From: an uncultured delta proteobacterium
GTDB taxonomy: Bacteria > Desulfobacterota > Desulfobacteria > Desulfobacterales > JAHEIW01
Assembly: GCA_963706575.1 (NCBI GenBank)
Contig: CAVPNL010000006.1
Coordinates: forward strand, 672,001 to 736,000
Direction of reading: 5' to 3'
Length of the DNA stretch: 64,000 nt
In this document: piece by piece, positions 7,662 to 31,670 of the stretch
Layout: every line of letters starts with the position of its first letter
Numbering within the stretch: the first letter of the stretch is position 1
Notes under the pieces: model-generated
What the model was told of the DNA's origin: nothing
Databases searched by the model: none
Seen by the model: the letters and a program-made list of their open reading frames with translations, nothing else
Translations under genes and position numbers: made by a program

Positions 7662-7739
7662 AAGCGTTCTGTTGGGCTTATCCGTCATTTTATGGATGTA
7701 ATAAAATGCCTCTTGAAAATTTAAGGAGTACAGAAACCA

Positions 7740-8803: not shown

Positions 8804-8844
8804 AACCATCTTTTTTATGTAAAAAAATCAACTATTAGACGATT
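8804..8844. promoter_or_regulatory. Operator-like site: half-site plus palindrome AATCAACT-ATT-AGACGATT
   Basis: Palindrome 8826-8844 with half-site AACCATCT 22 bp upstream. Same architecture at 15222-15262 and 22830-22870. Confidence 0.65.
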
Positions 8845-8904
8845 TTCATATTTCAGACGGTCGTGTAAAAATTTAAAACGATAATTTAATGTCTCGGAAT
8901 TTCT

Positions 8905-9861: not shown

Positions 9862-9862
9862 T

Positions 9863-10159
9863 TTGACCCAACCCGTTTTGGTGGATGTGCTTTTGACTGA
9901 TTTTCGGCAATGAGTTGCCTGCGTCTATATGGCGGAGTCGGTAAAGGTTTTACCGCAAGACATCCAGGAAATTATCGAAGTGCATGAATGGGATATGCGC
10001 ACCCGAGAAGGGGTGGTGCGCTTTCGGGAACTGAAGGCCAAGTCCCTGCCCAGCGTTGCTTTAGACGGCGACCTGGTTTATGAATCCCTTATCCCCATGC
10101 AGGAAGAACTCATCGACGAAATCCGCAGACGTTATAAGGAAAAGAATCAGAATGAATAA
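9863..10159 (+). CDS. Thioredoxin-like selenoprotein, UxxC (UVAC); TGA 9911-9913 read as Sec17; 98 aa
   Basis: GGAGG 9853-9857 precedes TTG 9863. In-frame TQPVLVDVLLTDFRQ-TGA-VACVYMAESV aligns with DVLTLDSVQ-CAACGYMMESI of 29258-29659. Hairpin follows. Confidence 0.85.
9939..9955 (+). other. Candidate bacterial SECIS hairpin
   Basis: Perfect 7-bp stem CGGTAAA-GGT-TTTACCG. Loop starts 32 nt after the UGA. Confidence 0.7.
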
Positions 10160-11141
10160 TATCTATCTGGAAGATGTTAACATTGAAGGCTTTAAATCCT
10201 TTTCAGAAGAAACCAACATGAGCTTTCAGCCCGGCATCGGCGTTATTATTGGAAATAACGGCGTCGGAAAATCGAATATCCTGGATGCGATTGTCTGGGC
10301 GCTGGGCGAAAATGATCTGGACCGCATCCGTTGTTATGAAAAAGAAGAGTTGTTTTTTGCCGGCAGCAAAGACTATCCGCCGGCACCCAAAATTCGGGTG
10401 GAGTTGATGCTAAAGCAGGGAGAAGAAAAAGACGCACCCGGCATCCAATTGGCCCGTGAGAGAAACAAAAATGGGGACGATCAATACTGGATTGATAAAA
10501 CCAGCTATGCACGCCAAGCCTATCGTGAAAAATTAGATGCCTATAATCTCAGGCATTGTCTGGCAACCATCATCCGGCAGGAACAAATTAATGACATGAT
10601 TCAGCTCGATCCCTGGCAGCGGTTTGACGGCATCCGGCAAGTGCTGGGCCTTGATTCCGAAGAAGAAACCGTTGGATGCCTCAAAGATATCATTGGTCCC
10701 TTATTTCAGCGCTATATGTCTTATCTGATACCGCTTGGTGACGTCGAGCTGGATGTGATTTCAAAAGATGGGCACAGGGGATTGGAGATCGAAGTCAACC
10801 TTCCGGGCAATCGCCTGCGCAGGGCCCATCAATTGTCCGGCGGCGAAAAATCCATTACCAGTCTGGCGCTGAAGCTGGCGATTTTCCACCAACTTGAAAG
10901 CCCTTTTTTTCTGCTGGATGAAGTGGAGCCCTCCCTGGACTATACCAACCACAAGTCGATGCAGACCTTTCTCAAAGACGTGGCCGACAGCAAACAGCTG
11001 ATCATGATTACTCACCTTAGAAGCACCATCGCTCTGGCCAATACGGTGCACGGCGTGAGAACCCGCTGGGATGGATCTTCGTTCATGAAATTTTATTTTG
11101 TGATGGACGAGCGTTTGTTGAGGCTTTATAAGTGCTGCTAA
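10152..11141 (+). CDS. Short SMC/RecN-like ABC ATPase (head domains only), C-terminal Cys-Cys; 329 aa
   Basis: GFKSF, GNNGVGKSNILDAI, LSGGEKS, FFLLDEVE, LIMITH; ends RLYKCC. ATG 10152 overlaps the end of the upstream gene. Confidence 0.8.
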   Translation: MNNIYLEDVNIEGFKSFSEETNMSFQPGIGVIIGNNGVGKSNILDAIVWALGENDLDRIRCYEKEELFFAGSKDYPPAPKIRVELMLKQGEEKDAPGIQLARERNKNGDDQYWIDKTSYARQAYREKLDAYNLRHCLATIIRQEQINDMIQLDPWQRFDGIRQVLGLDSEEETVGCLKDIIGPLFQRYMSYLIPLGDVELDVISKDGHRGLEIEVNLPGNRLRRAHQLSGGEKSITSLALKLAIFHQLESPFFLLDEVEPSLDYTNHKSMQTFLKDVADSKQLIMITHLRSTIALANTVHGVRTRWDGSSFMKFYFVMDERLLRLYKCC

Positions 11142-11142
11142 A

Positions 11143-11886
11143 ATGATTGCGATCAGCGACCTCGATACGGCTATCCATAAGGCCAGGCCTATGCTGGAAA
11201 GCCTGCAGCGCTTATATCAGCGCTTGCCGCAGACCGGCTGCCAATGTGAGCAACCGGGTGTATGCTGTGCATTTTTGCCGGAAATGACATGGATGGAAGC
11301 CGTCCAATGGGCCGGGCTCATCCAGGCAATGCCTGCCGGTGACCGCACGAAGATTCTGCAAAAGTTTTTGGAATTTTATCTGACAAATCCCATTCGTCCT
11401 GCCGGATGTCCTTTCCTGGAAGATGGCGCCTGCACTATTTATGAATTGCGCCCTTTTGCCTGCCGCGCCTATGGTCTGTGGAGCCCCGAATTCGGTAAAG
11501 TCAGAACCCAAAAAAGCCGGCAGGATCGAAAAGCGTTGCTGCAAATGTGGCAAAAATTCGGGCTGGAGCTTCCCCCGCAGACGGTGGAATCTGAAATCGA
11601 TTATTGTGATCGGGTTCGTTGCGCAGCTGAAAAATCGATGTCTGACAGTCAACTCATGGATATCTTGCAGCAGATATATGAACTCGATCAAGCCTTAGCG
11701 GAGCTGCAAACCAGATTTGAAGCTGAATATCATTCCGACTTTAGTTTTTTGATTGCGTCCCTGGCTCTGGGCTATCGCAAAGCAGTCCTCGGGAAATTTG
11801 CCGTTATCAAGGAAATGGTTCAGCAGGGAACCACAGAGCGGCTTGAGCAAATGCTGGGCAAGGCAACTGCAGAGGTGCTTGGTTAA
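11143..11886 (+). CDS. YkgJ-like cysteine cluster (CxxCxxCC family) protein
   Basis: CQCEQPGVCC and CPFL...CTIYELRPFACR. Confidence 0.8.
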   Translation: MIAISDLDTAIHKARPMLESLQRLYQRLPQTGCQCEQPGVCCAFLPEMTWMEAVQWAGLIQAMPAGDRTKILQKFLEFYLTNPIRPAGCPFLEDGACTIYELRPFACRAYGLWSPEFGKVRTQKSRQDRKALLQMWQKFGLELPPQTVESEIDYCDRVRCAAEKSMSDSQLMDILQQIYELDQALAELQTRFEAEYHSDFSFLIASLALGYRKAVLGKFAVIKEMVQQGTTERLEQMLGKATAEVLG

Positions 11887-12101
11887 TTTTGGGTTTCGGG
11901 TGCCAGGTGTCAGGTGTCAGTAAACAGAGGACAGGCAATAAATGGGAAGTAGGGTCGACCCCCGACTGCCGCGGCGAAGCCCCGAGCGAAGACGGGTGCC
12001 GACCGCAGAACGGCGGGCACAGAGGCCCGCCCTACATCTGAATGCTGACACCTGAAACCACAGTTATTACGACTTTTGTAACTTTTTTGTGCGACACAGT
12101 A

Positions 12102-13112
12102 TTAAGAAGTTTCAACTATGCAGCGGTTTAATTCTTTGAGCGTTTCATCCGCATTTATTTTCCATCCGATAAAGGCCAGCCGGGTTTCAGCTTCACCTTC
12201 CCATGGGGACCATTCGCTTTTGCCGCCGACAAAATTGAGCATTTCCAAGCGATCCACAAAACGAACCGGGCCTTTAATTCGAAATAATTCCCAGGGTAAA
12301 TTGGTGATAAATTTTTTAAAGCAAGCCTCGTCGAAAATTCTTGAATCATGGAAAGAAAATGTCACAAAGTTAATAGACTTAGCCGGATGGCTGTCGTGTT
12401 CTTCGGGAGAATGATGATGGTCGCTTGAATCAGGTTTGGCGTTTAAAGCCGCAGGCTGGAAAAATTGAATCGGCTTTAATCCAAATATTTTTGGTTGAGC
12501 CTGTGCCCAAAGGGTTTCCGGATCGATTCCGCAGTGAATTGTTGGCACCACCTGGCAGTCGGGTATGACGTCATGGATTTCGGCAAGAAACTGCGGAATT
12601 TTTTCTGCGGCCATTAAATCAATTTTATTTAAAAGGATTAAATTGGCCATTTCAAGCTGGTTGTAAAAAAGCTGTCCGAATACTTCGCGCGCCCCCCAGA
12701 TATCTGCCTCCAACACCGTAATAATTTTTTTAAGTTGCATGTGTTGACCGATCTGCGGATCCTGCAAAACCGTTGTAATCGATTTGGGGTCGGCTACGCC
12801 TGAGGCTTCTATTAAAATACGGCGGGGTTTGAATCGCTTCCAGATGCGCGTCAGCGATTGATGCAAGTCGGCGCTGAGCGTGCAGCAGATGCATCCACTG
12901 GTCAGCTCGATCACGTCAGAACCGCTATCTTTAAGCAAGGCACCATCGATGCCGATGTCGCCAAACTCATTGACCAGGACAACTGTTTCGGAGAGGTCGG
13001 CTTGCCAGGAAAGAATTCTTTTGAGCAGGGTGGTTTTACCCGCCCCCAAAAAGCCCGACAAAAGTAAAATGTCGGCTTTATATTCCGGCTGATTGCCAAG
13101 TGGTGCGCTCAT
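12102..13112 (-). CDS. COG0523/CobW-family P-loop GTPase (metallochaperone)
   Basis: SGFLGAGKTT, VNEFG, GCICC, EASG, NKID, short His-rich linker, RIKG. Confidence 0.9.
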   Translation of the reverse strand: MSAPLGNQPEYKADILLLSGFLGAGKTTLLKRILSWQADLSETVVLVNEFGDIGIDGALLKDSGSDVIELTSGCICCTLSADLHQSLTRIWKRFKPRRILIEASGVADPKSITTVLQDPQIGQHMQLKKIITVLEADIWGAREVFGQLFYNQLEMANLILLNKIDLMAAEKIPQFLAEIHDVIPDCQVVPTIHCGIDPETLWAQAQPKIFGLKPIQFFQPAALNAKPDSSDHHHSPEEHDSHPAKSINFVTFSFHDSRIFDEACFKKFITNLPWELFRIKGPVRFVDRLEMLNFVGGKSEWSPWEGEAETRLAFIGWKINADETLKELNRCIVETS

Positions 13113-13163
13113 TGAACTTTTCCTCCGAATTGACCCGGATCAAAATAACCGGGGTGGATGAAT

Positions 13164-15122
13164 CTACACGGCGATGGTTGCCACCTGGTAACAGCGCAAG
13201 CAGCGCTCGGCTTCGGCCACGGCTTGCTGGGCGGATAGGCCCTGCTCGACTTCATCAAAGGTTGATTTTCGCGTGTCCGGTGGGAGTATGTCCGGCTGGA
13301 AGCGCGGTTTGCTCTCGACCTTGAGGATTTCCTCGTCCGGGTCATAGACTTTTACGGTTTCGAAAAGCTTATCAAAATAGTGGTCGTCATCATAATCAAG
13401 GGACTGCGTATTAATTAAGCGATCGATGCTGTGAGCCGCCCGGCGGCCGCCGGCGCAGGCGGTAATCAAGGCATCCGGTCCGGTTTCGCAGTCACCGGCA
13501 ACAAAGATTTTTGGGCGGCGGCTCTGCTTGGTGTATTCGTCAACGACAATGGTATTCCATTGGGTTGTTTGAACATCATCCATTCCGGCAAGCAGTGAAA
13601 GATCGACCTGCTGCCCAATAGCTGAAACGATGGTATCGCAGTCAAAAACAAATTCCGAACCCTCAACCGGCACCGGTCGCGGTCTACCGCTGGCATCCGG
13701 TTCACCCAGTTCCATTTTGATGCATTCAAGGCCGACCACCTTACCCGCTTCAGCCAGGATCCGTACCGGCGCCGTCAGGAAGTGGAACTGCACCTGTTCT
13801 TCTTCGGCATCGTGAATTTCGGCCTCATCGGCCGGCATTTCGTTGCGGGTCCTGCGGTAAACCAGGTGAATATCTTCTTTCTCGGTGCGCAAGGAACAGC
13901 GAACACAGTCAATGGCAACATTTCCGCCGCCGATAACCACGACTTTTTTGCCCTGCGGATACGGATCACGGCCGGCGTTCACCTCTCGCAGGTACGCAAG
14001 CCCCGGGATAAATCCCTGATATTCTTGGCCTTCTCCTTCGATACCGATTTTGGTGCTGTCCTGCGCACCCATACCGATAAAAACCGCATCGAATTCATTT
14101 TCTAGTTGAGAGAGCGTCAGATCATTTCCGATGGTTTGACCGTAGTTGATGGAAACGCCCATTTTCTGAATTTGCTGCACCTCACCCTGCAGGATATTAC
14201 GGGGCAGCCGGTAGTCGGGAATCCCCACGGCGGACATACCGCCCGGTCGATCCAGGGCCTCATAGATCGTTACCTCATGGCCTTTGCGGGCCAGGTGATA
14301 GGCACAGGTAATGCCGGCGGGTCCGGCACCGACAATGGCCACTTTCCCGGTATTTTCGGAAGGCGTGATTTCGTATTCGGGCTCCTTTTGCTCGGCGAGC
14401 TCATGATCCGCCACAAAGCGCTTGAGCGCTTTTATCGAAATGGGTTCATCTAAATTGCCGCGCCGGCAATGTTTTTCACAGGGCCTGAAACAGACACGAC
14501 CCACGATACCCGCTATGGGCAGACGTTCGCGAATGACCGTGAGAGACTCTGCAAATTTGGCGTCTTTGATCAACTCAACGTATTTGGGAATATCGAGGTG
14601 AATCGGGCAGGCGTCCAAACAGGGAGCGGTCAGTTTTGAATAATAGGTTCCCTTTGTCATCTGTTTCTCGCCGCTGACGGCCTGTGAAAAATCATCGCCA
14701 AAATATTTGAGGGCATGAAATAGTGGTGCCGGTCCGGATTTGCCGATGCTGCATTTTGCATTGCTAACGATTGCTTCAGCAGCCGACTGCATAAATTCCA
14801 GGTCTTCTTCGGTCGCTTCGCCGTTGGCGATATCCTCAAAGACCTCGAGCATCTCCTCCCAGCCCGTTTTGCAGTAATTACATTTATCACAGGTTTTTGA
14901 ATGCGCCAAAACGGCCTCAAAATAGGCCCGGCAAAGATCGATGATATCCACATCAGGTGATCGCAGTACAATTCCTTTCCAGCCCATCAATGCTTTGATC
15001 TTTTCGTCCTGCTTGAAATATTCAGGCAAATCCAGATCTTTGATTGATGCCTGGTTTTGCGCTTCATCGCCGCGGTTTTCAATAATTTCTCCGCCCCATG
15101 AACTGAAAATTATGTCCGTCAT
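13164..15122 (-). CDS. Fe-S/FAD oxidoreductase: NuoF-like Fe-S region plus GltD/NfnB-like pyridine nucleotide-dependent domain
   Basis: CDKCNYC...KCSIG, PCLDACP, GRVCFRPCE..C, GAGPAG, GGGNVAIDC, YRR, GD, EAERCLRC. GGAG before ATG 15122. Confidence 0.85.
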   Translation of the reverse strand: MTDIIFSSWGGEIIENRGDEAQNQASIKDLDLPEYFKQDEKIKALMGWKGIVLRSPDVDIIDLCRAYFEAVLAHSKTCDKCNYCKTGWEEMLEVFEDIANGEATEEDLEFMQSAAEAIVSNAKCSIGKSGPAPLFHALKYFGDDFSQAVSGEKQMTKGTYYSKLTAPCLDACPIHLDIPKYVELIKDAKFAESLTVIRERLPIAGIVGRVCFRPCEKHCRRGNLDEPISIKALKRFVADHELAEQKEPEYEITPSENTGKVAIVGAGPAGITCAYHLARKGHEVTIYEALDRPGGMSAVGIPDYRLPRNILQGEVQQIQKMGVSINYGQTIGNDLTLSQLENEFDAVFIGMGAQDSTKIGIEGEGQEYQGFIPGLAYLREVNAGRDPYPQGKKVVVIGGGNVAIDCVRCSLRTEKEDIHLVYRRTRNEMPADEAEIHDAEEEQVQFHFLTAPVRILAEAGKVVGLECIKMELGEPDASGRPRPVPVEGSEFVFDCDTIVSAIGQQVDLSLLAGMDDVQTTQWNTIVVDEYTKQSRRPKIFVAGDCETGPDALITACAGGRRAAHSIDRLINTQSLDYDDDHYFDKLFETVKVYDPDEEILKVESKPRFQPDILPPDTRKSTFDEVEQGLSAQQAVAEAERCLRCYQVATIAV

Positions 15123-15221
15123 GCTATCGCCTCCATACCTTAATAATGCACTCAATTTTCCGATCAAATTTTTCTCATACCGTATAACCGATGTCAATGC
15201 ATTCGATTTTATTGTTTATAA

Positions 15222-15262
15222 AATCATCTATATTCATTCTAAAAATCATCTTTTAGACGATA
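15222..15262. promoter_or_regulatory. Operator-like site: half-site plus palindrome AATCATCT-TTT-AGACGATA
   Basis: In the divergent intergenic region. Half-site 15222-15229, palindrome 15244-15262. Confidence 0.7.
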
Positions 15263-15450
15263 TAAAAAAGAGGAAGTTTTGATAATAGATAATTGAGACT
15301 TTTTCACCCTGCAAGGTTTTTGAGTTAAGTCGGGAGGATGACCCCCATGGCATATTCCTGCGCGTAATGCGCTTTAATATGTTAAACCGCGACAGGGCCC
15401 TCTGGGTGGTTTGGGGAAATTATTTTTTTAAAGACCAAAGGAGGTAGGCT

Positions 15451-16434
15451 ATGCAACGTTTTAGTAATGAGCCAAAGGTTTATGACGTCGGTGGCGTGAA
15501 ACTCGGCGGTCAGCCGGGCGATTATCCCACAGTCTGCTGCTTCTCCATCTTTCAGGAAAGCGACAAGTTGTTTGACAAGGGCAGCCGCAGAAAAGGGTTC
15601 AATGAAGCGCGAGCAGAAGAATTGCTGAAAGGGGCAGAAAAACTGTGGAAGGAAACGGGCGTGCCCGTTATGGCCGACATTGTCGCCAGCCCGGGCGAAA
15701 AATTCAAAAAATATGTGGATTTTGTCACCTCGGTCAGCGACATGCCCTTTTGCGTTGACGCCATTATGATGCCGGCCAAATTGGAGGGCGCGGCCTATTG
15801 TGCCGAACAGGGTTTGCTGGACCGAATGTTCTATAACAGTATTACCGTCTGGGAGGAAGACTTAGAAACGGAAGTTAAGGAATTGGCACAAATTGGCGTC
15901 AAGCATGTGCTGCTGGTTGCCTTTGATCAGGATGATCAGACACCCAATGGCAGGATTACCGGCGCCCAAAAACTGCTGGATGCCATCGAAAAGGCCGGCG
16001 CCGAATTTGAAAGTATTATTGTCGATACTACCACCCTCAACGCGCCCGCCAATGCGTTGTGCGGGCTGTCGAATCAGTTAATAAAGGAAAAATGGGGCTT
16101 TGCAACCGCCAGTGCGCCCAGCAACGGTTCTTACATGGAATTGCAGCGCTTTAAGGATATGTTTGGATTTAAAGGTTGGGCCGGGTTTGATGCCGCGGTG
16201 GAAGCCCTTTCGGCGTTTTATTACAATGATTTAATTTTCACCGGGCCCATGGCAGGTGCGCCGCGGGTCGTAACCGCAGTTGCGGCGGCCGATGCGTTTT
16301 TAGCCACGTCGGTTTTTAATGAAACCAAAGAGCTGCCCAAAGATCCCAACCACCCATTGCTCAAGCTATTTCCGGAGTTTGCCGAACAGCTCAAGGTGGC
16401 CTGGGATAAGCCCAGTGACCTTGAAAAAATGTAG
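15451..16434 (+). CDS. MtrH-family methyltransferase (probable methylcorrinoid:tetrahydrofolate methyltransferase)
   Basis: VGGVKLGGQPGDYPTV..SIF, FYNSI, IVDT, IKEKWG..TASAPSN are characteristic of MtrH/MtgA-type pterin methyltransferases. GGAGGT RBS. Confidence 0.85.
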   Translation: MQRFSNEPKVYDVGGVKLGGQPGDYPTVCCFSIFQESDKLFDKGSRRKGFNEARAEELLKGAEKLWKETGVPVMADIVASPGEKFKKYVDFVTSVSDMPFCVDAIMMPAKLEGAAYCAEQGLLDRMFYNSITVWEEDLETEVKELAQIGVKHVLLVAFDQDDQTPNGRITGAQKLLDAIEKAGAEFESIIVDTTTLNAPANALCGLSNQLIKEKWGFATASAPSNGSYMELQRFKDMFGFKGWAGFDAAVEALSAFYYNDLIFTGPMAGAPRVVTAVAAADAFLATSVFNETKELPKDPNHPLLKLFPEFAEQLKVAWDKPSDLEKM

Positions 16435-16491
16435 CCGTATGGAATATGGAATGATGCGTTTGTAATCTTCAGTTGCATGCCTTTTTGAGTC

Positions 16492-16524
16492 GGGCGAGGA
16501 TTGCTTGAGATCCTCGCCCTTTTC
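16492..16524 (+). terminator. Intrinsic terminator after the MtrH-family gene
   Basis: GGGCGAGGAT-8nt-ATCCTCGCCC followed by TTTT. Confidence 0.7.
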
Positions 16525-16826
16525 AACCCCATCGTTATGTCGCCTCCGTGCGCTCCCCGGAGATCCTTCCACTCAAAAAACAATTTGTTCCCGCCGGCAG
16601 ATCTCTATCTGTAAGCTGCCGCGCATATTCATTTATCGGATGCGGGGGCAGCGGATCTTATATTTGAATCAAAATCGGCTTGCTGATTGACATTATCAGT
16701 GTTAATAAGGATTTGGCGTGAGCCAGCGCCTTTTGCAATGATGCGTGAACCTGAAGGAAGGCCCTGCCTAAAATCGGGCCGGCATAAAATTATGCGACAT
16801 TTCGTTATCCGTCATCCAGGTGGGAA

Positions 16827-17351
16827 ATGACTATTTTTGACTGGCAAAGTGAACTCAACCGGGACGGGCACCGGGTTGTGATCTCGGGACAGCCCATTGC
16901 CATGCACTGCCATCATTATAATATCAATTTGCAGAAAACGCTGGAGGAGACCCTGGGCGCGGAAGGCATCGAGCTTTTGTACCGTTCGGCTGAGGAAACC
17001 AATTATAATAGTTTGCAGCACCTCTTCAACCAATATAAAAAAATCAGAACCCTAAAATCGAAGCTGGAAATGGCCTCCCTGCTCTTTCAGAATTGCGGTT
17101 TGGGGATAATCCATTTCAGGAAGGTCAGACCCCATGCGGCTTATATTGCGAGCACCTCCAGCCATCATGTCACCGGGTGGCTCGCAAAACACGGGCGACG
17201 CGAAACACCCGGCTGTCACTTTACCCGGGGCTGGATTGCCGGTGCGCTGGAGGTGATTTACCAGCGTCCCCTTGGTTTTTATATCGTGGAGGAACGGCGG
17301 TGCAAAATGCAGCGGGATGAGGAGTGTGTCTTTCATGTCAAGGAGCGTTAA
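16827..17351 (+). CDS. V4R (4-vinyl reductase-like) domain protein
   Basis: GLG, PGCHFTRGWIAG, EERRC..RDEECVF; N-terminal HCHHYN. Confidence 0.75.
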   Translation: MTIFDWQSELNRDGHRVVISGQPIAMHCHHYNINLQKTLEETLGAEGIELLYRSAEETNYNSLQHLFNQYKKIRTLKSKLEMASLLFQNCGLGIIHFRKVRPHAAYIASTSSHHVTGWLAKHGRRETPGCHFTRGWIAGALEVIYQRPLGFYIVEERRCKMQRDEECVFHVKER

Positions 17352-17954
17352 GTGGCAATTGATGTAAGCAAGATTATCCATGCGGTCATGGAAGGCAGCA
17401 AGATAAGGGAATCAAAGGGGATCATCCCCCTTTTCGGGGTCTATCTCTCGTTATTTTCGGTGAACTATTACAACCGGTTGAGCTTTGACTTTGAAATCAA
17501 AATGGGCAAACAGCGTGAGGCTGAAGCCAAGGCCCTTTTGATTGAAGCGGCCCAGGAGTGCGGTTATGCCACTTTTCAAGGCATTCGCGATTCCTGGGAG
17601 TGGCAGCAGGTTGTCGCCCCCATGGTTGAAAACAAAAAAGATCAGATTTTCGGTTTTGTGGCCGTGGCCGTGGCTTTTGGCTGGGGAGACCTGACCGTCG
17701 CGGAACTTGTTCCGGATGAAAAACTTGTGATCCTCGCCAGCGATTCCTATGAGGCCAACGGCTACCTGGAGCAATACGGTGCTGCAAAATCGGAAAAATG
17801 CTATATGCTGCGCGGGGTAACGGCTGCCTTCATGGACCTGGTTTACGGCGGCGATTATCCGGATGGCTGTTTTACCTTCGCAGCTCAAGAGCCGCGTTGC
17901 CGGGTAAAAGGAGACCCGTATTGTGAGTTTATTGCTCGAAGATCATCTGATTGA
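17352..17954 (+). CDS. V4R domain protein
   Basis: FGWG, SYEA, CYMLRG, EPRCRVKGDPYCEF. Confidence 0.75.
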   Translation: MAIDVSKIIHAVMEGSKIRESKGIIPLFGVYLSLFSVNYYNRLSFDFEIKMGKQREAEAKALLIEAAQECGYATFQGIRDSWEWQQVVAPMVENKKDQIFGFVAVAVAFGWGDLTVAELVPDEKLVILASDSYEANGYLEQYGAAKSEKCYMLRGVTAAFMDLVYGGDYPDGCFTFAAQEPRCRVKGDPYCEFIARRSSD

Positions 17955-22980: not shown

Positions 22981-24057
22981 ATGGCTGAGCTGACTCCCAT
23001 AGAACGAGTACAGCGATTTTTTAATCGCGAACCCGTAGACAAGATGCCATTTTTTTCGGGGATGGGTATGGTCCTCCTGCCCGCGATCAAAAAACTGGGC
23101 TATAACTTTCCATCGGTCCACCGGAATGCCGAGCGCATGGCTCGTTCTGCGATCGAATCTGCCCGAATGTTCAATTTGGATTCTGTTGTGGTTCCCTTTG
23201 ATATGTGCTGGGAATCCGAAGCCCTGGGTAATGAAATCAGTCTGTATGAAGATTCTGAGGATATCCTTTATCCGACCATTCCCTATAAAAATTGGACGGA
23301 AGTGGATCAAGTCGAAATTTCCCAGGACGATATCGACAATATCATGGATAAATATCCGATGAACTTGCTGCCCGAGGCCATCGCGATTGTCAAAAAGGAA
23401 GCGCCGGATCTGGCCCTGGGTGCCTGGCAATTGGGTCCCTTCACCCAGTGCGGCCAGACCATTGAGCTGGATAAGGTCCTGAAGGCGGTTTTCAAAGATA
23501 CCGCACGCGTAGAGGACATCCTGGACAAGTTTTCCGATATGATCATTAATATCGGAAAAGCACTCAAAGCCGCCGGAGCAGATTTTCTTACCCTGAGGGA
23601 ACCCGGGGTGGCTGCAGACCTTCTGAGCCCCAAGACGTTTAAGGAGATGATCGCACCGCGACTCACACGGATTTTGTCGGGCTGGGAGTCACCGAAAGTG
23701 TTGCATATTTGCGGTTCTACCGATCCACTGGTAGAAATGATGTGGCAGATTGTGACCGATTCGGGCGCCCAGGCAGTCAGTTTCGACATAAAAAACAATC
23801 TTTTAGAAACACGGAAAAAATTAGGTGATGACGCCCTGATTGTTGGCAATTTCGATGTCTTCGGGCTGCCCTGTGCGGAAGAAACGACCGTCGAGCAGGC
23901 CATTGCGGGTATCCGGACCAATATTGACGGGAAAATCGATGCGGTCTGGCCGGGTTGTGATCTTTGGCCGGATATCAAAGAAGAAAACTTTAGGGCCATG
24001 GAAAAAACGGCCCGTGAGTATTATGCCGGTCCGACTCCAGCCGTTGGGCGGCTTTAA
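22981..24057 (+). CDS. MtaA/CmuA-family (UROD-fold) Zn-dependent methylcobamide methyltransferase
   Basis: PFDMCWESEALG, GPFT, LLSP..F, canonical Zn ligands LHICG and WPGCD. Confidence 0.88.
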   Translation: MAELTPIERVQRFFNREPVDKMPFFSGMGMVLLPAIKKLGYNFPSVHRNAERMARSAIESARMFNLDSVVVPFDMCWESEALGNEISLYEDSEDILYPTIPYKNWTEVDQVEISQDDIDNIMDKYPMNLLPEAIAIVKKEAPDLALGAWQLGPFTQCGQTIELDKVLKAVFKDTARVEDILDKFSDMIINIGKALKAAGADFLTLREPGVAADLLSPKTFKEMIAPRLTRILSGWESPKVLHICGSTDPLVEMMWQIVTDSGAQAVSFDIKNNLLETRKKLGDDALIVGNFDVFGLPCAEETTVEQAIAGIRTNIDGKIDAVWPGCDLWPDIKEENFRAMEKTAREYYAGPTPAVGRL

Positions 24058-24095: not shown

Positions 24096-24767
24096 ATGGC
24101 GAGCAAAGAAGAATTATTTGAATTGCTGAAAGACGGTGTGATCAATTATAAAGAGGAACAGGTCAAGGAAGCCGCGCAGCAAGCGGTCGATGAAGGATAT
24201 GTGGCGCTAGAGATGATCATGGATGGTTTGGCTGCCGGAATGGAGGTCGTCGGTGAGCTCTACGAGAAGCACGAATATTTTGTCCCCGAGGTACTCATGT
24301 GCGCCGATGCCTTATATTTGGGCCTGGATATACTGCGACCGCATGTCCCCAAGTCGGACGCGGGCGCGGTGGCGCAGGTGGTAATCGGCAGCATCCAGGG
24401 CGATGTGCACGACATCGGTAAAAACCTGGTCAAGATGATGTTTGATGTCGCCGGTTGGGAGGTTTATGACCTTGGCCGGGACGTGCCGCTTGAGAATTTT
24501 GTGGAGGAACAGTTGCGGACGGATGCCGAGGTCGTGGCCATGTCAGCCATGATGACCACAACCATGCTGGGTATGAAAAAAGTTATCAAGATGATCAAAG
24601 ATAAGAACCCGGACGTGGCCATCATGTTAGGCGGCGCGCCCGTGACCCAGGATGTCGCCAACCTTTTTGGTGCCGATGGTTATGCCGAGTCTGCCGGGAA
24701 TGCGGTGGCAGAAGGGATCAAGATGATCGGGCGTCTGCGGGAATTCGAAAAAAAGAAGGAAGGGTAA
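24096..24767 (+). CDS. Methyltransferase cognate corrinoid protein (MtaC/MttC-like)
   Basis: GL..GM..VG..YE..EYFVPEVL cap, GDVHDIGKNLV (DxHxxG), SAMMTTT, GGAP, GADGY. Confidence 0.95.
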   Translation: MASKEELFELLKDGVINYKEEQVKEAAQQAVDEGYVALEMIMDGLAAGMEVVGELYEKHEYFVPEVLMCADALYLGLDILRPHVPKSDAGAVAQVVIGSIQGDVHDIGKNLVKMMFDVAGWEVYDLGRDVPLENFVEEQLRTDAEVVAMSAMMTTTMLGMKKVIKMIKDKNPDVAIMLGGAPVTQDVANLFGADGYAESAGNAVAEGIKMIGRLREFEKKKEG

Positions 24768-24936: not shown

Positions 24937-27003
24937 ATGGGAGACAAGGATAACAACGCGATGGTTATTTTTCAACCGTCGGGACGAAGAGGCGAGGTGC
25001 CTAAAGGCATCAATGTGTTAGAAGCGTCCAGATTGCTGGGGGCTGATATCGAGGCCCTGTGTGGAGAAAAGAAGGTTTGTGGCAAGTGTAAAGTCCGTAT
25101 CGAAGAAGGCCGTTTTGAGAAATACGGCATCGAGTCCAAAATGACCAACGTTAGCGCCTGGCAGGAAGAAGAAGAAAAGTTTATCTTTCCTAAAGAAAAA
25201 GAGACCGGTCATCGATTGGCCTGCGTCTGCGAAATTCAGGGCGATCTTTTGGTTTTCGTACCGGAGGAATCTCGCGCCGGCAAGCAGGTGGTGAGTAAAG
25301 CGGCCCGGGACATATATATCGAGCATAACCCGGCGGTAAAAATTTACACTGTTAAAGTCGACCCCCCCACCTTTGAAGAACCCACCGCAGATTTTGAACG
25401 CGTCTGCCGGGTACTGGAAAAAGAGCACGGACTTAAAGATCTGGCGGTTGACATATTTGCCTTAAGGCAGCTGCCCACGGCACTGCGCGACGGCGATTGG
25501 TGCGTGACGGTCAGTGTCTGGAACGACAGGGAAGTTGTGCGCTTTCGACCCGGCAAGGCCGAGCGCGCTTACGGATTGGCGATCGATGTGGGCACGACCA
25601 CCGTGGCGGCCTATTTTTGCGATCTGACCACGATGGAGGTTGTCGATACGGTCTCTATGATGAATCCCCAGTGCAAATATGGCGAGGACGTCATGGCGCG
25701 GATCACCTATCACATGACCTCTACCGATGGGTTGCAGCGAATGAACGACGACATCATCGAGGGGCTCAATTCTCTGGTCGATCAGGCCATCCAGAACACC
25801 TATCCGCCCAAGAAGAAAAAGAAGAAGAAAAAAGGTGAAGAAGGACCGGCTGAGTTTGTGGAAGTGCCCGAGGAAGGCAAGACCTATCTGCGCCTGACAA
25901 AAGAAGATATTGAGGATGTAACCATTGGGGGCAACACTGCCATGCATCATATTTTTCTAAAACTCAATCCCGAGCATGTGGGGTTGGCTCCTTTTCCCCC
26001 GGTGATCCATCACAGTCTGGACATCAAGGCCCGCGATATGGGCATCAACATCAATCCCGCTTCTTATGTATTTGTGCTTCCCAATGAAGCCGGATTTGTG
26101 GGTGCGGATAACGTCGGTGTGATGCTGGCCGAAGAGCCGTACAAAAAAGACGAAATCTCACTGATTATTGATATCGGCACCAATGGCGAGCTGGTGTTGG
26201 GCAACAAAGAGAAGTTGATCTCCTCTTCCTGTGCGACCGGTCCGGCCCTGGAGGGGGCCCAGATTGCTTTCGGTATGCGGGCAGCCCCCGGGGCCATGGA
26301 ACGCATCGAAATCGATCCTGAAACGCGGGAGGTGAATTACAAGGTGATCGGCCGCGACGCCTGGCGTAAATATTCGGAACCCAAGGACATGAAAGCCAAA
26401 GGCATCTGCGGTTCCGGTATTTTGGACCTGCTGTCTGAGCTCTACTGTGCGGGGATTATTATCAAAAGTGGCGCATTTAACAAAGAAGCGTTAGCGGGGC
26501 ATCCCCGTTACCGATTGAACCCGGATACCAACCAGCCGGAATTTGTTCTGGCCTGGGCGGAGGAATCCAGCATTGATAAGGACATCGTGGTCACCCAAAA
26601 AGATGTCCGCCAGATCCAATTGGCAAAAGGCGCACTTTATGCCGGCTGTAAGCTCATGATGCAACGCATGGGAATGGAGAAAGTGGATACGATCAAAATC
26701 GCAGGTGCTTTCGGCACCCATGTGGATCGCGAAAAAGCGCTGATTATGGGGCTGTTTCCGGACTGCGAGATCGAAAAGATCGAAAGTGTCGGTAATGCTG
26801 CCGGTGACGGTTGCCGAGCGGCGTTGTTGAATAAGGACAAACGGGAGGAAGCCAACTGGGTATCGCGCAATGTGGAATACATTGAGCTGACCGTAGAGGG
26901 AGACTTCCAGACCGAATTCATGGAGGCCATGCAGATACCGCATATGACGGACGAATTTCCGCATCTGGTCGGTGTCGTCCCCGAGGAAATTCTAAATCAA
27001 TAA
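24937..27003 (+). CDS. ASKHA-family ATP-dependent corrinoid reductive activator (RamA/RACo-like) with N-terminal 2Fe-2S domain
   Basis: CGEKKVCGKC...RLAC, DVGTTT, NPQ..YGEDV, GFVGAD, DIGTNGE, CATGPALEG, GICGSG, QLAKGA, AGAFG, GNAAG. Confidence 0.92.
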   Translation: MGDKDNNAMVIFQPSGRRGEVPKGINVLEASRLLGADIEALCGEKKVCGKCKVRIEEGRFEKYGIESKMTNVSAWQEEEEKFIFPKEKETGHRLACVCEIQGDLLVFVPEESRAGKQVVSKAARDIYIEHNPAVKIYTVKVDPPTFEEPTADFERVCRVLEKEHGLKDLAVDIFALRQLPTALRDGDWCVTVSVWNDREVVRFRPGKAERAYGLAIDVGTTTVAAYFCDLTTMEVVDTVSMMNPQCKYGEDVMARITYHMTSTDGLQRMNDDIIEGLNSLVDQAIQNTYPPKKKKKKKKGEEGPAEFVEVPEEGKTYLRLTKEDIEDVTIGGNTAMHHIFLKLNPEHVGLAPFPPVIHHSLDIKARDMGININPASYVFVLPNEAGFVGADNVGVMLAEEPYKKDEISLIIDIGTNGELVLGNKEKLISSSCATGPALEGAQIAFGMRAAPGAMERIEIDPETREVNYKVIGRDAWRKYSEPKDMKAKGICGSGILDLLSELYCAGIIIKSGAFNKEALAGHPRYRLNPDTNQPEFVLAWAEESSIDKDIVVTQKDVRQIQLAKGALYAGCKLMMQRMGMEKVDTIKIAGAFGTHVDREKALIMGLFPDCEIEKIESVGNAAGDGCRAALLNKDKREEANWVSRNVEYIELTVEGDFQTEFMEAMQIPHMTDEFPHLVGVVPEEILNQ

Positions 27004-27004: not shown

Positions 27005-27355
27005 TTGCGGTGCATCTTGGCTTCTCAAAAACCAAAATGGGTGTGTGTGACGGTTGATCCGGGAATCTGCGGCTTTCCGTGTGTTATAAAGGCCCGCAAA
27101 ACAGGCGCTCGCGCGGTTTCGCTAAAAATTTCCGGTTCGGATTGCGAGCAGATTCAAAGACTGGCCGAGCGCCTTACGACTTTATCGATAAAAGAGCTGT
27201 TTACACCGCTGAGCCGCAATCCGGTATACATCTCAACTGAAAAGTCGGGTTGCCACCTCTCCTGTGCGATTCCGGTGGCGGTCATCAAGGCGGCTGAAGT
27301 GGCATTGGAGCTGGCGCTGCCGCAGGAAGTCCATATCAAATTCGAAGCGTGCTAG
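27005..27355 (+). CDS. Small Cys-containing conserved protein (DUF6951-like); start uncertain
   Basis: PGICGF, SDC, CHLSCAIP...KAAEV...LALP..V.I.F pattern. Confidence 0.6.
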   Translation: MRCILASQKPKWVCVTVDPGICGFPCVIKARKTGARAVSLKISGSDCEQIQRLAERLTTLSIKELFTPLSRNPVYISTEKSGCHLSCAIPVAVIKAAEVALELALPQEVHIKFEAC

Positions 27356-27368: not shown

Positions 27369-27965
27369 ATGCAAGAATCAAAAGTGGTTCCGTTTAAAGC
27401 CGGTGACGGCATATCGCATACCCTGACCCAGCGTCTGCTGGAAAAGGGCCGGTCATATGGCCTAAATGCGATTTTTCCGTTTGACATCGATAAAATTTCT
27501 GTGGCCGAATGGGTTCATCTTAAATGCCGTTACGGCTGTAACCAGTATAATACGAACTGGTGTTGCCCGCCGGCCACCCCTGATCCGGACAAGGTTCGTG
27601 CCGTTCTGTCGGAGTATTCCACCGCGCTCCTTCTGGTGGGAACCACAAATTGCTCGGACTTTTATCTGAACAACGAACGCAAGCGAATCTCTCAGGTCCG
27701 CTGCTGGAAGGGTACCATCAGCCTGGAACGCATCCTGTTTCTGGAGGGGTATTACAAAGCGTTCAGTCTTGTGGGGGAGTGTTGCGCCCTCTGCAAGGAA
27801 TGCGCCTACCCGGATGATTGCCGCTTCCCGCAAGAAAAAAGACCATCGGTGGAATCATTTTCCATTGATGTCATTGGAACCTTGAAAAATCTGGGTACCA
27901 CTTCAGCGGTTGCCGCTAAAACCTGTGAAACCTACAACTATTATGGCATTATTCTTTTGGAATAA
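27369..27965 (+). CDS. DUF2284-like metal-binding protein
   Basis: KCRYGC..Y..NWCCPP, GECCALCKEC, CRFP...RPSVESFSIDV. GGAG upstream of ATG 27369. Confidence 0.8.
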   Translation: MQESKVVPFKAGDGISHTLTQRLLEKGRSYGLNAIFPFDIDKISVAEWVHLKCRYGCNQYNTNWCCPPATPDPDKVRAVLSEYSTALLLVGTTNCSDFYLNNERKRISQVRCWKGTISLERILFLEGYYKAFSLVGECCALCKECAYPDDCRFPQEKRPSVESFSIDVIGTLKNLGTTSAVAAKTCETYNYYGIILLE

Positions 27966-28195: not shown

Positions 28196-29230
28196 ATGGC
28201 CAAACAAATGTTGATCGATGCCTATCGGGGAAAAAGAACGGAAAAACCACCCTGGGTACCATACGCAGGGGTTCACTGCGCCTTTTTGATCAATGAGCCA
28301 GCTGACAAAATGCTCAAGGATCCCAAGCTTTTGGCGAAAGGAGTCGTTAATGCCGCCAAGAGATACAAAGCGGATGGAATTCCACTGGTATTCGATCTTT
28401 CGGTCGAAGCCAATTCCATCGGGTGCGACCTGAAATGGTGGCCCGACAATGTCCCTTCCGTAACCAATCATCCCTGTTCCGACAAGACTCCCAAAGATGC
28501 CGGGCTCAAAATGCCCACCAAAGAATCGGGTCGCTGGCCGGTGCTTTATGAAGCCGCAAGAATTGCCAAACCTCAGCTGGATGAACTCGATTGCGTCCTG
28601 ATGGGTCTATTTTGCGGTCCTTTGACCCTGGCTTCCCATCTGGCCGGTGTGCGTATCTTTACCGATGTTTACAAAAATCCCGATTTTGCCGCCGAAGTTA
28701 TCAAATTTGCCGGTGAAGTCGGCGCGGCAGCTGCAAAGTTCTATGCCGAGATGGGTTGTGAGATTATCGCCATCGTTGATCCGGTGGCCTCACAGATTAA
28801 ATCCGAGACCTTCCAGAAATTTGTCACCCCCAATTCGCAACCGGCGATTAAAGCGATTCATGATGCCGGAGTGACCTCATCATTTTTCATTTGTGGCGAC
28901 TGCACCAAAGTCATGGAAGATGTCTGTAAGATCGGCACCCACGGCTTTGCCATTGATGAACAGCTCAATATGCTTTTTGTGCGGGATCTGGCACGTAAAC
29001 ACGGGGTGGGCTTTGGCGGCAATTTGAAGCTGACGCTGGCCCTGAGCCTCGGGTTATTGTCTCCCAGAGAGGATGCGATTGTGAGCTTGGCAGCAGGCGG
29101 GCAAGAAGGTTATACCTTCGCCCCTGGCTGAGATATGCCTTACGATGTTCCGGTGGAACATATGGATCAGGCCATCGAAGTCAGAGATTGGTTTGAACAG
29201 TATTATGCCAAGTATCCGGAATCTTGGTAA
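28196..29230 (+). CDS. MtaA/UROD-fold methyltransferase-like selenoprotein; TGA 29129-29131 read as Sec312; 344 aa
   Basis: The ORF track stops at FAPG, but the frame continues TGA-DMPYDVPVEHMDQAIEVRDWFEQYYAKYPESW-TAA. This restores the family PG[C]D motif and final helix. Hairpin follows. Confidence 0.88.
29145..29161 (+). other. Candidate bacterial SECIS hairpin
   Basis: Perfect 7-bp stem ATGTTCC-GGT-GGAACAT. Loop starts 20 nt after the UGA. Confidence 0.75.
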
Positions 29231-29257
29231 ACAATTATAGAAAGGAGGATTCGGATC

Positions 29258-29659
29258 ATGGCAGACAAAATTACCATTGATGTGCTGACACTGGACAGCG
29301 TGCAGTGCGCCGCCTGCGGCTACATGATGGAGTCCATCGCCGCTTTGCCATCTGATGTTCAGGATATGATCGTATACAAGGAATGGTCGATCAAAAACAA
29401 AGATGGCATTGGCAAGTTTCTGGAGCTGAAGGGTAAGGTACTACCGACCATCTGTATCGAGCGGGATCTGGTTTTTGAGAGTATCATTCCGCAATATGAG
29501 GAACTGATCGATGAGATGGCCAAACGGGCGCCGAATGACGATATGCGTGATCGTATCCAGGCCCTGCGCGAAACAGGATTTGAGTTCGATAAAATCCAGG
29601 AGAACCTGGCGAAAGCAGGAGCCGGCATGTCGACGCGCACAGATTCCAAAGTGCAATGA
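29258..29659 (+). CDS. Thioredoxin-like protein, CxxC (CAAC)
   Basis: DVLTLDSVQCAACGYM...LPTICIERDLVFESIIP. AGGAGG RBS. Confidence 0.85.
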   Translation: MADKITIDVLTLDSVQCAACGYMMESIAALPSDVQDMIVYKEWSIKNKDGIGKFLELKGKVLPTICIERDLVFESIIPQYEELIDEMAKRAPNDDMRDRIQALRETGFEFDKIQENLAKAGAGMSTRTDSKVQ

Positions 29660-29676: not shown

Positions 29677-29710
29677 ACAAGCCGGGCCCTGCAAAAGGCC
29701 CGGCTTGTTT
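29677..29710 (+). terminator. Probable intrinsic terminator
   Basis: ACAAGCCGGGCC-8nt-GGCCCGGCTTGT then TT. Confidence 0.6.
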
Positions 29711-29730: not shown

Positions 29731-30036
29731 GTGTTCCTATTGGAAACCAATGAAGCGGCTGAAAAACTGAAAACGTTTGTCTTAACGCACGACCTGCCCA
29801 AAACAGACATGGCATTGTTCGGCATTAAATGCCCCTATTGCGGAAAATCCGATCGCATCCGGGAGCTGGAAGAACCGGATGCATTGAGCGCGAAGATAGA
29901 TTCGGAAAATGTGGCCATCTATTTTAACCTATGGGATCAACTTGCCCGCTCAAACGGATCGCTGGCAGTCTGCAAATTTTGTCAAAACCTTCTATTGCTG
30001 CAGGATCAGGCAAGTGCTGCACCCCTGTATGAGTGA
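29731..30036 (+). CDS. Hypothetical protein with two CxxC motifs (zinc-ribbon-like)
   Basis: CPYC and CKFC. GGAG upstream of GTG start. Confidence 0.6.
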   Translation: MFLLETNEAAEKLKTFVLTHDLPKTDMALFGIKCPYCGKSDRIRELEEPDALSAKIDSENVAIYFNLWDQLARSNGSLAVCKFCQNLLLLQDQASAAPLYE

Positions 30037-30635: not shown

Positions 30636-31670
30636 ATGTCGGATGTCACCCGCGTATATTTGATTACCGGTTTTTTAGGCAGCGGTAAAACCACCTTGCT
30701 GAATCGCATTATTCAGCGCTTCCCCAAAGATAAAAAGCTGACACTGCTGGTTAACGAATTCGGTGAAGTCGGTGTGGATGGTACTCTGGTCGAAGGCGAA
30801 GACATCGATATGATGGAAATCAGCAAAGGTTCCATTTTCTGCGTCTGCGTTAAAACCGATTTTATAAAAGGTCTATACGAGCTCAACAGCAAAGTCCAGC
30901 CCGATGTGATGCTGATTGAATCAACGGGTGTGGCCAACCCCTCAGACTTAAAAAAAGATTTAAAACTGCCCATCTTCAATGACCGATTTCATTTCGTGGA
31001 GCAGTTTTGCGTGATCGATGCGGCCCACTTTTTGGATGCATACGGCGTCTATGCCTCTTTAGAAAAACAGATTGCTTCTTCCACCGTATTTATCATTAAT
31101 AAGATTGATACCGCCTCACCTGAAACAATTGAAGAGACTAAAAATGTCATTCGGCAGTTTCATCCCGATCCATTTTTTTACGACACCACCTATGCCGACA
31201 TCCCGCTGGCGGATTTTTTTGATTTAGCAGAACTGGATTTGCCCGATTCCGAAGTGCCGGAACCTAAAAAGGCAAAAGTGTCGGTTCTTTCGGAGGAAGC
31301 GCTTGACCAATTTATTGATGACCTCCTGGATAGCCCGGATCTTGAAATTACGCCACCGGACACGCTCATGTCCGTTACCTATAGCTGGAACGGAGACGAT
31401 CTGGAGCAGGTTAGAGCTATGGCCGAGGCTTTACCCCCTGCTGTAGTCAGGGCCAAGGGGTTTGTCGAAGAAAAAGGTGACATGTATTTGTTCAATTATG
31501 TCATGGGCGATTGGACCGTTGAAAAAACCAATGTGCCCAAGGATCGCATCCAAAACAAAAATATTGTTGTTTTTATTGGGCCGCCTGAATCTATGGAAGG
31601 AATCGAAGGGGCATCCAAAACAGGTGATTGGACCGGCAGAGGGGTATTTCAACCTTACTCGCAAACTTGA
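30636..31670 (+). CDS. COG0523/CobW-family GTPase
   Basis: TGFLGSGKTT, VNEFG, GSIFCVC, ESTG, NKID, RAKG. Confidence 0.88.
   Translation: MSDVTRVYLITGFLGSGKTTLLNRIIQRFPKDKKLTLLVNEFGEVGVDGTLVEGEDIDMMEISKGSIFCVCVKTDFIKGLYELNSKVQPDVMLIESTGVANPSDLKKDLKLPIFNDRFHFVEQFCVIDAAHFLDAYGVYASLEKQIASSTVFIINKIDTASPETIEETKNVIRQFHPDPFFYDTTYADIPLADFFDLAELDLPDSEVPEPKKAKVSVLSEEALDQFIDDLLDSPDLEITPPDTLMSVTYSWNGDDLEQVRAMAEALPPAVVRAKGFVEEKGDMYLFNYVMGDWTVEKTNVPKDRIQNKNIVVFIGPPESMEGIEGASKTGDWTGRGVFQPYSQT

Follow-up and report, generated by a model that had tools for sequence, protein, structure and literature searches.

The stretch of DNA analysed here, called the window below, comprises 64,000 nucleotides from an uncultured delta proteobacterium related to marine sulfate reducers (contig CAVPNL010000006.1, positions 672,001 to 736,000 of the forward strand). 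Positions 28196 to 29230 of the window carry a gene, here named Sec-UROD, whose product belongs to the URO-D/MtaA fold and contains an in-frame UGA that is very probably decoded as selenocysteine (Sec). The protein very probably represents a new selenoprotein family within an enzyme superfamily that is already known. Its active site is of unusual composition, and it has a partner of its own, the thioredoxin-like protein TrxL133, which is encoded directly downstream. The explanation that best accommodates the evidence is a selenocysteine enzyme that would carry out corrinoid-dependent methyl transfer, would hold a metal in its active site and would be served by TrxL133 as a redox partner. As a complete account, this explanation has about an even chance of being correct, and its parts differ in strength.

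Members of the family are frequent in metagenomes from sediments and wetlands, with 1062 homologues at E ≤ 1e-20, and runs from 16 studies contained the window, whole or in part. Because the protein is cut at residue 311 in the annotated entries examined, the whole enzyme family is mis-annotated. The proposed function would place selenium at the catalytic centre of a B12-dependent methyl-transfer system, and it bears on the turnover of methylated sulfur, selenium and amine compounds by sulfate-reducing bacteria. Moreover, the constant thioredoxin-like partner, which is fused to the enzyme in other phyla, points to a step absent from the known MtaA-type enzymes. The natural Sec/Cys pairs, together with partner-fused and partner-free forms, provide ready material on the roles of selenium and of the partner.

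Decoding of the in-frame UGA

The gene and the elements involved in its decoding are as follows.

28196..29230, + strand: Sec-UROD gene, encoding a 344-residue protein of the URO-D/MtaA fold (TGA translated as U; PF01208; PDB 4AY7)
29129..29131, + strand: UGA codon very probably read as selenocysteine, residue 312 (TGA in 22 of 22 Sec-type copies, Cys in relatives)
29145..29161, + strand: candidate selenocysteine insertion sequence (SECIS)-type hairpin with a 7-bp stem and the loop GGU at nt 24-26 from the U of UGA

The reading frame starts at the ATG at 28196, and the plain frame ends at the TGA at 29129-29131, within ...TFAPG-[TGA]-DMPYDVPVEH. Readthrough of this codon adds Sec and 32 more residues, to the TAA at 29228-29230, giving 344 residues in total. 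The match to the Pfam URO-D model (PF01208) spans the TGA and covers residues 3-329 (E 2e-47). The TAA is followed by AGGAGG, a Shine-Dalgarno-like ribosome-binding site, and then by the ATG of the next gene at 29258. The hairpin, ATGTTCC/GGT/GGAACAT, is perfectly paired. At the position of APG-TGA-DMP, the paralogue at 22981-24057 has WPGCDLW, and the motif SSFFICGDC of Sec-UROD corresponds to VLHICGS in that paralogue. The position of the TGA in FAPG-[TGA]-DMP, the Cys of the paralogue, the readthrough to the TAA, the hairpin and the FFICG motif all agree with a preliminary description of this DNA.

One line of evidence for selenocysteine is the conservation of the codon itself. Two samples were compared, consisting of 61 related genomes and of 401 genomes across the phylum. 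Among the related genomes, 13 of the 61 possess an orthologue at E ≤ 1e-40, all of them full-length matches with 66-100% identity. Each of these 13 matches covers residues 1-344 and contains exactly one in-frame TGA. In the phylum sample, orthologues occur in 10 of the 401 genomes, with G000 counted among the 10; nine have TGA, and the tenth (G425, 60% identity) has TGT, encoding Cys. Altogether, the TGA is kept in 22 of 22 Sec-type orthologous copies from 21 genomes, at identities down to 66%. Sequencing error is excluded because the TGA is present in 22 independent gene copies.

Among the best 120 database homologues, 116 are 311 residues long, one is 295 residues long and three are full length, and the 311-residue length of the 116 is due to gene callers cutting at the TGA. 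The named entries are called 'uroporphyrinogen decarboxylase family protein' or 'MtaA/CmuA family methyltransferase' and come from Desulfobacterales-type metagenome-assembled genomes (MAGs). The three full-length proteins (P0008, P0070 and P0100) carry Cys in the sequence APGCDMP, and the alignment of relatives places Cys at the UGA position of P0124 as well. In these four proteins and in G425, the residues around the Cys are the same as those around the Sec. Thus, the comparison of homologues across the codon, which had been suggested when the Sec residue was proposed, yields TGA or Cys at this site, with a conserved protein downstream.

The 32 codons beyond the TGA also behave as coding sequence. 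In the 22 Sec-type copies, codons vary while residues are kept at Q+13, E+16, Y+25, Y+28 and P+29. Because synonymous codons vary while the residues stay, the frame after the TGA is under selection at the protein level. The hairpin, in turn, is selected at the RNA level. Its codons are nearly frozen, with Pro+7 being CCG in 22/22, Val+6 being GTT in 21/21 and Glu+9 being GAA in 21/22, while the Gly, Ala and Pro codons flanking the hairpin each use two to four codons. Across the stem, 96% of the cells are paired, and one compensatory pair, U-A to C-G, occurs in G320. In the Cys form of G425, the hairpin loop is CCC and two stem pairs are broken.

The hairpin also resembles those that follow the UGA in established selenoprotein genes of this genome. 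Two FlpD/MvhD-type genes and two SelD genes have 5-7-bp stems after the UGA, and their loops of 3-4 nt start with G and lie at nt 24-27 from the U of UGA. The genome encodes the Sec machinery, namely tRNA-Sec, SelA, SelB and SelD, and SelB would decode UGA-312 as selenocysteine, directed by the hairpin at 29145-29161. A second SelD-like gene with an in-frame TGA, at G000:C3:438965-439886 (L050/L051), matches the SelD model in two pieces, 3-198 and 204-310, which could reflect a frameshift, a split gene or further recoding. Between 26900 and 31800, no convincing further in-frame TGA with conserved readthrough was found in the DUF2284 gene or other genes.

Several observations on the hairpin weigh against selenocysteine. 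Its covariation is minimal, with 22 of 500 shuffles of the 23 sequences scoring as high, the fold energy of the 81-nt region is unremarkable (z = -1.5), and a search of Rfam over 29050-29300 at E ≤ 10 gave chance-level matches and no SECIS family. Because of the z value, the case for the hairpin rests on its conservation and on the comparison with known SECIS elements, not on energy. The same unexceptional fold energy and absent Rfam match, and the fact that the annotated database entries examined all end at residue 311, would be expected if the protein were no selenoprotein, with the TGA being a true stop that yields a 311-residue product or marks a decaying gene, a sequencing error, or a codon read through with a standard amino acid. 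This alternative is very improbable, given that the TGA recurs in 22 copies followed by 32 codons conserved as protein, that Cys orthologues exist, that the hairpin fits the SECIS pattern of the same genome and that the full Sec machinery is present. In addition, a 311-residue product would be without the last helix of the URO-D model, which matches to residue 329. Three metatranscriptome studies of sediment and one DNA run also yielded contigs that cover the site at 29129-29131, and the differences listed for those contigs include no change there, with 193 further differences lying outside that listing. Translation of TGA as Trp under another genetic code was considered as well and set aside, because the orthologous UROD gene of G159 has a TGA as its stop codon and because the Sec machinery exists. 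Overall, the decoding of UGA-312 as selenocysteine appears highly probable from these sequence comparisons.

No UROD/MtaA-type selenoprotein was found in the main text of a 2026 review of the prokaryotic selenoproteome (PMC13188914), nor among the 30 families of a paper on the selenoproteome of Olavius symbionts. A full-text literature search found no published description of a selenoprotein of this type, and no model of NCBIfam release 20 claims the Sec-UROD protein.

Active site and relationship to MtaA-type enzymes

Two further groups of codons bear on the active site.

28886..28903, + strand: codons Phe231-Ile-Cys233-Gly-Asp-Cys236, at the position of the H-x-C motif, with Phe for His and an extra second Cys
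28955..28960, + strand: codons Asp254-Glu255, the Glu being co-conserved with the Phe-for-His state

The only solved relative identified by sequence is MtaA from Methanosarcina mazei (PDB 4AY7; E 9e-24, residues 3-333). In the alignment to 4AY7, Phe231 and Cys233 correspond to the His and the Cys of LHICG, and Sec312 corresponds to the Cys of APGC; therefore, Cys233 and Sec312 must be neighbours in space. The location of Sec at the distal zinc-ligand Cys of MtaA-type enzymes, as originally proposed, is borne out by this alignment. The parts of PMC10418091 that deal with the S-methyltransferases of the superfamily describe their Zn coordination sphere as His-Cys-Cys. Sec-UROD departs from this His-x-Cys...Cys triad, having Phe231 for His and Sec312 for the distal Cys while keeping Cys233. 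The Sec family also has a third thiol, Cys236 of the C-G-D-C motif, which brings the number of soft ligands to three. The preliminary description had spoken of a Cys/Sec site without the His. The absence of His is correct, but the description was incomplete, since it overlooked Cys236 and the co-conservation of Glu255 across the His-less clade.

The loss of His has a broader distribution than Sec. When 71 relatives are aligned, F-x-C is seen in 21 of them and H-x-C in 35. In a quick tree of these relatives (SH-aLRT support, midpoint root), all F-x-C rows lie within a clade of 38 rows, separate from 33 canonical H-x-C rows (SH-aLRT 99). As judged from this alignment, the loss of His is a trait of the whole sister clade and is not peculiar to Sec-UROD. 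Glu255 is kept in 20 of the 21 F-x-C rows vs 4 of the 35 H-x-C rows; therefore, the chance that the site binds a metal through a different set of ligands is no smaller than the chance that it is metal-free. The Sec family itself is isolated, with one representative at 61% identity and the next full-length ones at 39% or less.

Sec-UROD thus resembles MtaA and MtbA from Methanosarcina (4AY7/4AY8) in its UROD TIM-barrel, in the placement of Cys233 and Sec312 on the two Cys of the H-x-C...C motif and in the location of its gene beside a cognate-type corrinoid protein and a reductive activase. In contrast to MtaA and MtbA, it has Phe for His, Sec for the distal Cys, Cys236, a conserved Asp254-Glu255 pair and a bacterial host. 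The NCBIfam scores are far below the respective cut-offs (TIGR01463, 134.5 vs 235.4; NF040654, 103.8 vs 400; NF041608, 93.5 vs 600), and for this reason Sec-UROD is not an MtaA equivalog. To our knowledge, MtaA has no obligatory thioredoxin-like partner, unlike Sec-UROD. By its sequence, Sec-UROD appears to work like MtaA and MtbA yet to lie outside their family, given its altered zinc triad and its scores below the family cut-offs.

His-free zinc sites are known from other enzymes that transfer methyl to or from corrinoids or thiols, such as the Glu-Cys-Cys site of the methanol:corrinoid methyltransferase MtaB and the Cys-Cys-Cys sites of MetH and BHMT. For an MtaB model, zinc is mentioned together with C219 and E312. 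These proteins are unlike Sec-UROD in belonging to other folds or families and in having neither Sec nor a thioredoxin-like partner. Among described systems, the type 1 mlp clusters and SdmABC, for which a role in the metabolism of methyl-selenium compounds has been proposed, come closest to Sec-UROD, which is set apart from them by their descriptions. In the portions of PMC10418091 concerned with them, the Mlp proteins of the type 1 mlp cluster and SdmC of Methanococcus voltae are proposed to be S- or Se-methyltransferases, and ClMlp2 transfers methyl from methylcobalamin to selenide. The Mlp proteins and SdmC are described there as His-Cys-Cys almost without exception and not as selenoproteins, with the mentions of Sec concerning neighbouring genes; those passages describe no thioredoxin-like partner for them either (PMC10418091). 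For comparison with the type 1 mlp cluster, the window holds two UROD genes, a corrinoid protein and RACo.

The Sec decoding signals, the homology, the residue positions, the synteny and the fusions are shown here; beyond them, we infer that Sec-UROD transfers methyl from cobalt to a soft atom at Cys233/Cys236/Sec312, or in the reverse direction. If Sec is indeed present, it is likely that a corrinoid-dependent reaction delivers methyl to, or removes it from, a soft atom at Cys233/(Cys236)/Sec312. The enzyme would act with the neighbouring corrinoid protein and the RACo activase, with S or Se being the likeliest soft atom and a metalloid less so. In this site, Sec312 would stand in place of the distal Zn-ligand Cys of MtaA, Cys233 would occupy the proximal place and Phe231 would replace the His. 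The least certain step is the presence of a metal, most likely Zn, with Cys/Cys/Sec and a carboxylate (Asp254 or Glu255) as possible ligands. Whether Zn or another metal is held there, with the carboxylate replacing His, is evenly balanced; the missing His ligand and the restriction of Cys236 to 5 of the 21 F-x-C rows (it is Ala in G425) speak against it.

The thioredoxin-like partner

The module formed by Sec-UROD and its partner is completed by two features.

29258..29659, + strand: TrxL133, a 133-residue thioredoxin/glutaredoxin-like protein with a CxxC motif (C17-A-A-C20)
29677..29708, + strand: G+C-rich terminator-like hairpin that would close the two-gene module (consensus match only)

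TrxL133 has an invariant Pro63, matches no Pfam family and is called a 'hypothetical protein' in the named database entries. A homologue with 95% identity is known from the Olavius Delta 1 symbiont. The NCBIfam model HUIPC_Trx_selen gives a weak match, below its cut-off (E 1e-7). In G159 and G124, a second, diverged copy of TrxL133 with 37-41% identity and a CLPC motif lies slightly downstream (L036 8339-8680; L042 12164-12448).

The association of TrxL133 with the enzyme, claimed from their adjacency in the preliminary description, is upheld by three kinds of evidence. First, TrxL133 lies directly 3' of the UROD gene in 21 of the 23 copies; the two exceptions are a contig end and one copy in G027 that has another UROD gene instead. 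Second, five distant relatives of 455-539 residues with 27-36% identity to the enzyme (P0131, P0133, P0134, P0136 and P0158) have a fused C-terminal domain resembling TrxL133. These domains share 18-41% identity with TrxL133, and the CxxC is kept in four of the five. The fusion proteins are recurrent and natural, occurring in Sphaerochaetaceae and Thermotogota MAGs. A word-based search for longer relatives of TrxL133 gave one match only, probably with a mis-called start. In P0158 (455 residues), a single case, both UROD cysteines and both CxxC cysteines are lost together.

Third, structure prediction places the two proteins together. The complex was modelled from custom alignments with the natural Cys orthologue P0008, 80% identical to Sec-UROD, as the enzyme. 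The predicted complex obtained a median score of 0.66 vs 0.00 for the best control. Of 157 solved complexes, 116 attain this level, as do 2 of 215 mismatched pairs. The runs share at least 84% of their contacts, and the partner has a pLDDT of at least 82. The modelled interface includes residues 233-235 and 312-313 of the enzyme as well as residues 15-19 and 61-63 of TrxL133; therefore, the Pro63 loop and the first CxxC cysteine, which is exposed, would face the Cys/Sec site. In complexes of thioredoxin with its targets, the first CxxC Cys and the cis-Pro loop likewise face the target site. Together, synteny, fusions and the complex model with its controls support the view that TrxL133 is functionally tied to the enzyme.

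Based on this model, it is fairly probable that TrxL133 docks on the Cys/Sec site and exchanges a disulfide or selenenylsulfide there. The presumably co-transcribed partner would approach through its exposed Cys17 and the cis-Pro loop, and the exchange would keep the Cys/Sec pair reduced or re-reduce it. Some aspects of the modelling weigh against such docking. The enzyme in the complex was a stand-in, and both alignments contained the fused relatives. If TrxL133 occupied the active face, it would also compete with the corrinoid protein. Lastly, the AlphaFold model of TrxL133 alone is weak, with a pLDDT of 60.4. In that model, the order of secondary-structure elements and the positions of the motifs would fit a thioredoxin fold (beta-alpha-beta-alpha-beta-beta-alpha, with the CxxC opening helix 1 and a cis-Pro loop), and neighbours in the Atlas outside its own family score 0.86-0.89.

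The presence of such a partner raises the question of the chemistry at the site, as a thioredoxin-like partner combined with Sec is more typical of redox chemistry than of Lewis-acid catalysis. A metal-free redox enzyme is accordingly a rival, in which a Cys233-Sec312 selenenylsulfide couple would be re-reduced in each turnover by TrxL133, itself fed by the Trx_3 protein and the thioredoxin reductase (TrxR)-like protein encoded in the window. In that case, methyl transfer would go together with reduction of the substrate by two electrons, or the methyl group would be carried by the selenolate, in line with the selenol acceptor suggested in the preliminary description. The loss of the His ligand, the dedicated CxxC partner that is adjacent or fused, the modelled contact of the exposed Cys17 and cis-Pro loop with residues 233-235 and 312-313, and the joint loss of all four cysteines in P0158 are consistent with this possibility, but the Asp-Glu pair has been conserved, and so have the two Cys positions of the Zn ligands. 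Furthermore, apart from metalloid methylation, we know of no corrinoid methyl transfer that needs two electrons per turnover. Known bacterial selenoproteins are mostly redox proteins according to the review (PMC13188914). Given the evidence on both sides, including the neighbouring genes considered below, a metal-free enzyme is the less likely case, albeit one to be taken seriously.

A more far-reaching reading is rather unlikely. The selenolate might ligate a catalytic Zn or other soft metal, or Sec itself might carry, as a covalent intermediate, an Se-methyl group received from methyl-cobalamin, and TrxL133 would complete or reset the site through an inter-protein Cys17/Cys20-Cys233/Sec312 centre. 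If the first of these is true, this would be the first enzyme known to have a selenolate ligand at a catalytic Zn or soft-metal centre for methyl transfer. On either reading, these proteins would constitute a new and widespread class of two-protein (or fused) corrinoid methyltransferases that is abundant in marine sediments.

Genomic neighbourhood and possible substrates

The module lies within an island of genes for corrinoid-related functions, which includes the following.

22981..24057, + strand: second UROD/MtaA-like methyltransferase, with a canonical H-x-C...C triad
24096..24767, + strand: cognate-type corrinoid protein (B12-binding_2 and B12-binding)
24937..27003, + strand: RACo-type reductive activase of corrinoid proteins
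27005-27355, + strand: DUF6951, upstream of the module and syntenic in L035, L036, L041 and L042
about 27369-27965, + strand: DUF2284 'predicted metal-binding', upstream of the module and syntenic in L035, L036, L041 and L042
30387-30632, + strand: Thioredoxin_3 (Trx_3; MTH895/ArsE family), with Trx_3 in 4 of 9 loci
30636-31670, + strand: CobW/COG0523 GTPase (CobW1), with an orthologue in 5 of 9 loci

The order of the island is two-component system, B12/radical-SAM protein, canonical MtaA-like protein, corrinoid protein, RACo, DUF6951, DUF2284, Sec-UROD and TrxL133. Downstream of TrxL133 are a small Cys-rich protein, Trx_3, CobW, the TrxR-like protein, a GcvH-related protein, PadR, a second CobW and an MIP channel. 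When compared with nine loci of 10-20 kb from other genomes, the corrinoid protein is near Sec-UROD in eight, and RACo and the CobW1 orthologue are near it in five each.

These neighbours bear on the choice between a metal-containing and a metal-free site. A COG0523 subfamily is known beside Zn-dependent corrinoid methyltransferases, according to the relevant passages of PMC2770081, and the location of the CobW (COG0523) gene next to the module is our main argument for a metal in the site. The adjoining CobW metallochaperone genes correspondingly speak against a metal-free enzyme. The Trx_3 and TrxR-like genes of the window would fit a reductive pathway to TrxL133, but a search with the TrxR-like gene of the window as the query did not find it in the nine other loci.

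The direction of methyl transfer is suggested by three other genomes. In G320, G058 and G027 (66-72% identity), the order is corrinoid protein, a non-pyrrolysine (non-Pyl) MtmB homologue of 460 residues and Sec-UROD. MtbA works with MtmB and MtmC, and Sec-UROD similarly adjoins an MtmB-family methyltransferase in these genomes. The layout mirrors MtmC-MtmB-MtbA and thereby suggests that the corrinoid is the methyl donor and the Sec enzyme the recipient. The arrangement in the window, where an MtrH-like gene is nearby (15451-16434), would suit a demethylase loading the corrinoid just as well. The MtmB homologues of L034 (G320), L038 (G058) and L040 (G027) are full length and match PF05369 with E 1e-82 to 1e-86. 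Amino-acid-type ABC transporter genes are nearby in G320 and G027, and GntR-family regulator genes are nearby in G058 and G027. The first function demonstrated for a non-Pyl MtmB is the demethylation of tetramethylammonium and choline, as given in the part of PMC13044021 on this protein.

The neighbourhood is also the source of a third possibility, a metalloid enzyme in which Cys233/Cys236/Sec312 would bind As(III), Hg, Sb or Se directly, like the three cysteines of ArsM. The corrinoid protein would methylate or demethylate the bound metalloid, and TrxL133 would reduce the resulting oxidised Cys pair. An all-soft site of three ligands in the Sec family fits such a function, as does the presence in the window of Trx_3, of the MTH895/ArsE family, and of the MIP channel. 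Sec arsenite methyltransferases are listed in the 2026 review (PMC13188914). Together with the DUF2284 fusions (NF041536, NF045648), they are similar to Sec-UROD in that Sec replaces a substrate- or metal-binding Cys, and a DUF2284 gene is nearby here. Its product matches the C-terminal part only of the NCBIfam 'ArsM/DUF2284' and 'MbdU' selenoprotein models, below the cut-off. In contrast, those enzymes have an S-adenosylmethionine (SAM)-dependent Rossmann fold, while Sec-UROD has a corrinoid-dependent UROD fold and the DUF2284 protein beside it is separate and without Sec. Moreover, Pfam scans of the window and four related loci gave no recognisable family for arsenic resistance, such as ArsR, Acr3/ArsB or ArsC, and Cys236 is absent in the Cys orthologue of G425 and in most of the wider clade. 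The non-Pyl MtmB homologue found beside amino-acid-type ABC genes in three genomes points to organic methyl donors instead. Direct metalloid binding is therefore quite improbable, and the transfer of methyl groups involving S or Se continues to be the preferred function of Sec-UROD.

Some minor features of the surrounding DNA may be added. Between TrxL133 and Trx_3, positions 29731-30036 encode a 101-residue, zinc-ribbon-like CPYC...CKFC protein without a Pfam or NCBIfam family, which is conserved in L035, L036 and L042 with 38-51% identity. The RACo gene (24937-27003) encodes, by an A-rich tract in the middle region, a run of at least 8 lysines (PPKKKKKKKKGEEG), and the Pfam Raco_middle match is split in two. 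The island extends over 5900-17400 and 36890-59200, where it contains the MtrH-like methyltransferase, DUF1638, DUF169, two BtuR/CobO adenosyltransferases, CobS, CobU, CobQ, CobT, a TonB-dependent receptor with TonB/ExbBD, BtuCDF-type ABC genes and CbiM/CbiQ. Cobalamin salvage, cobalamin transport and cobalt uptake are thus represented among these outer genes. A third CobW paralogue is encoded at 12102-13112.

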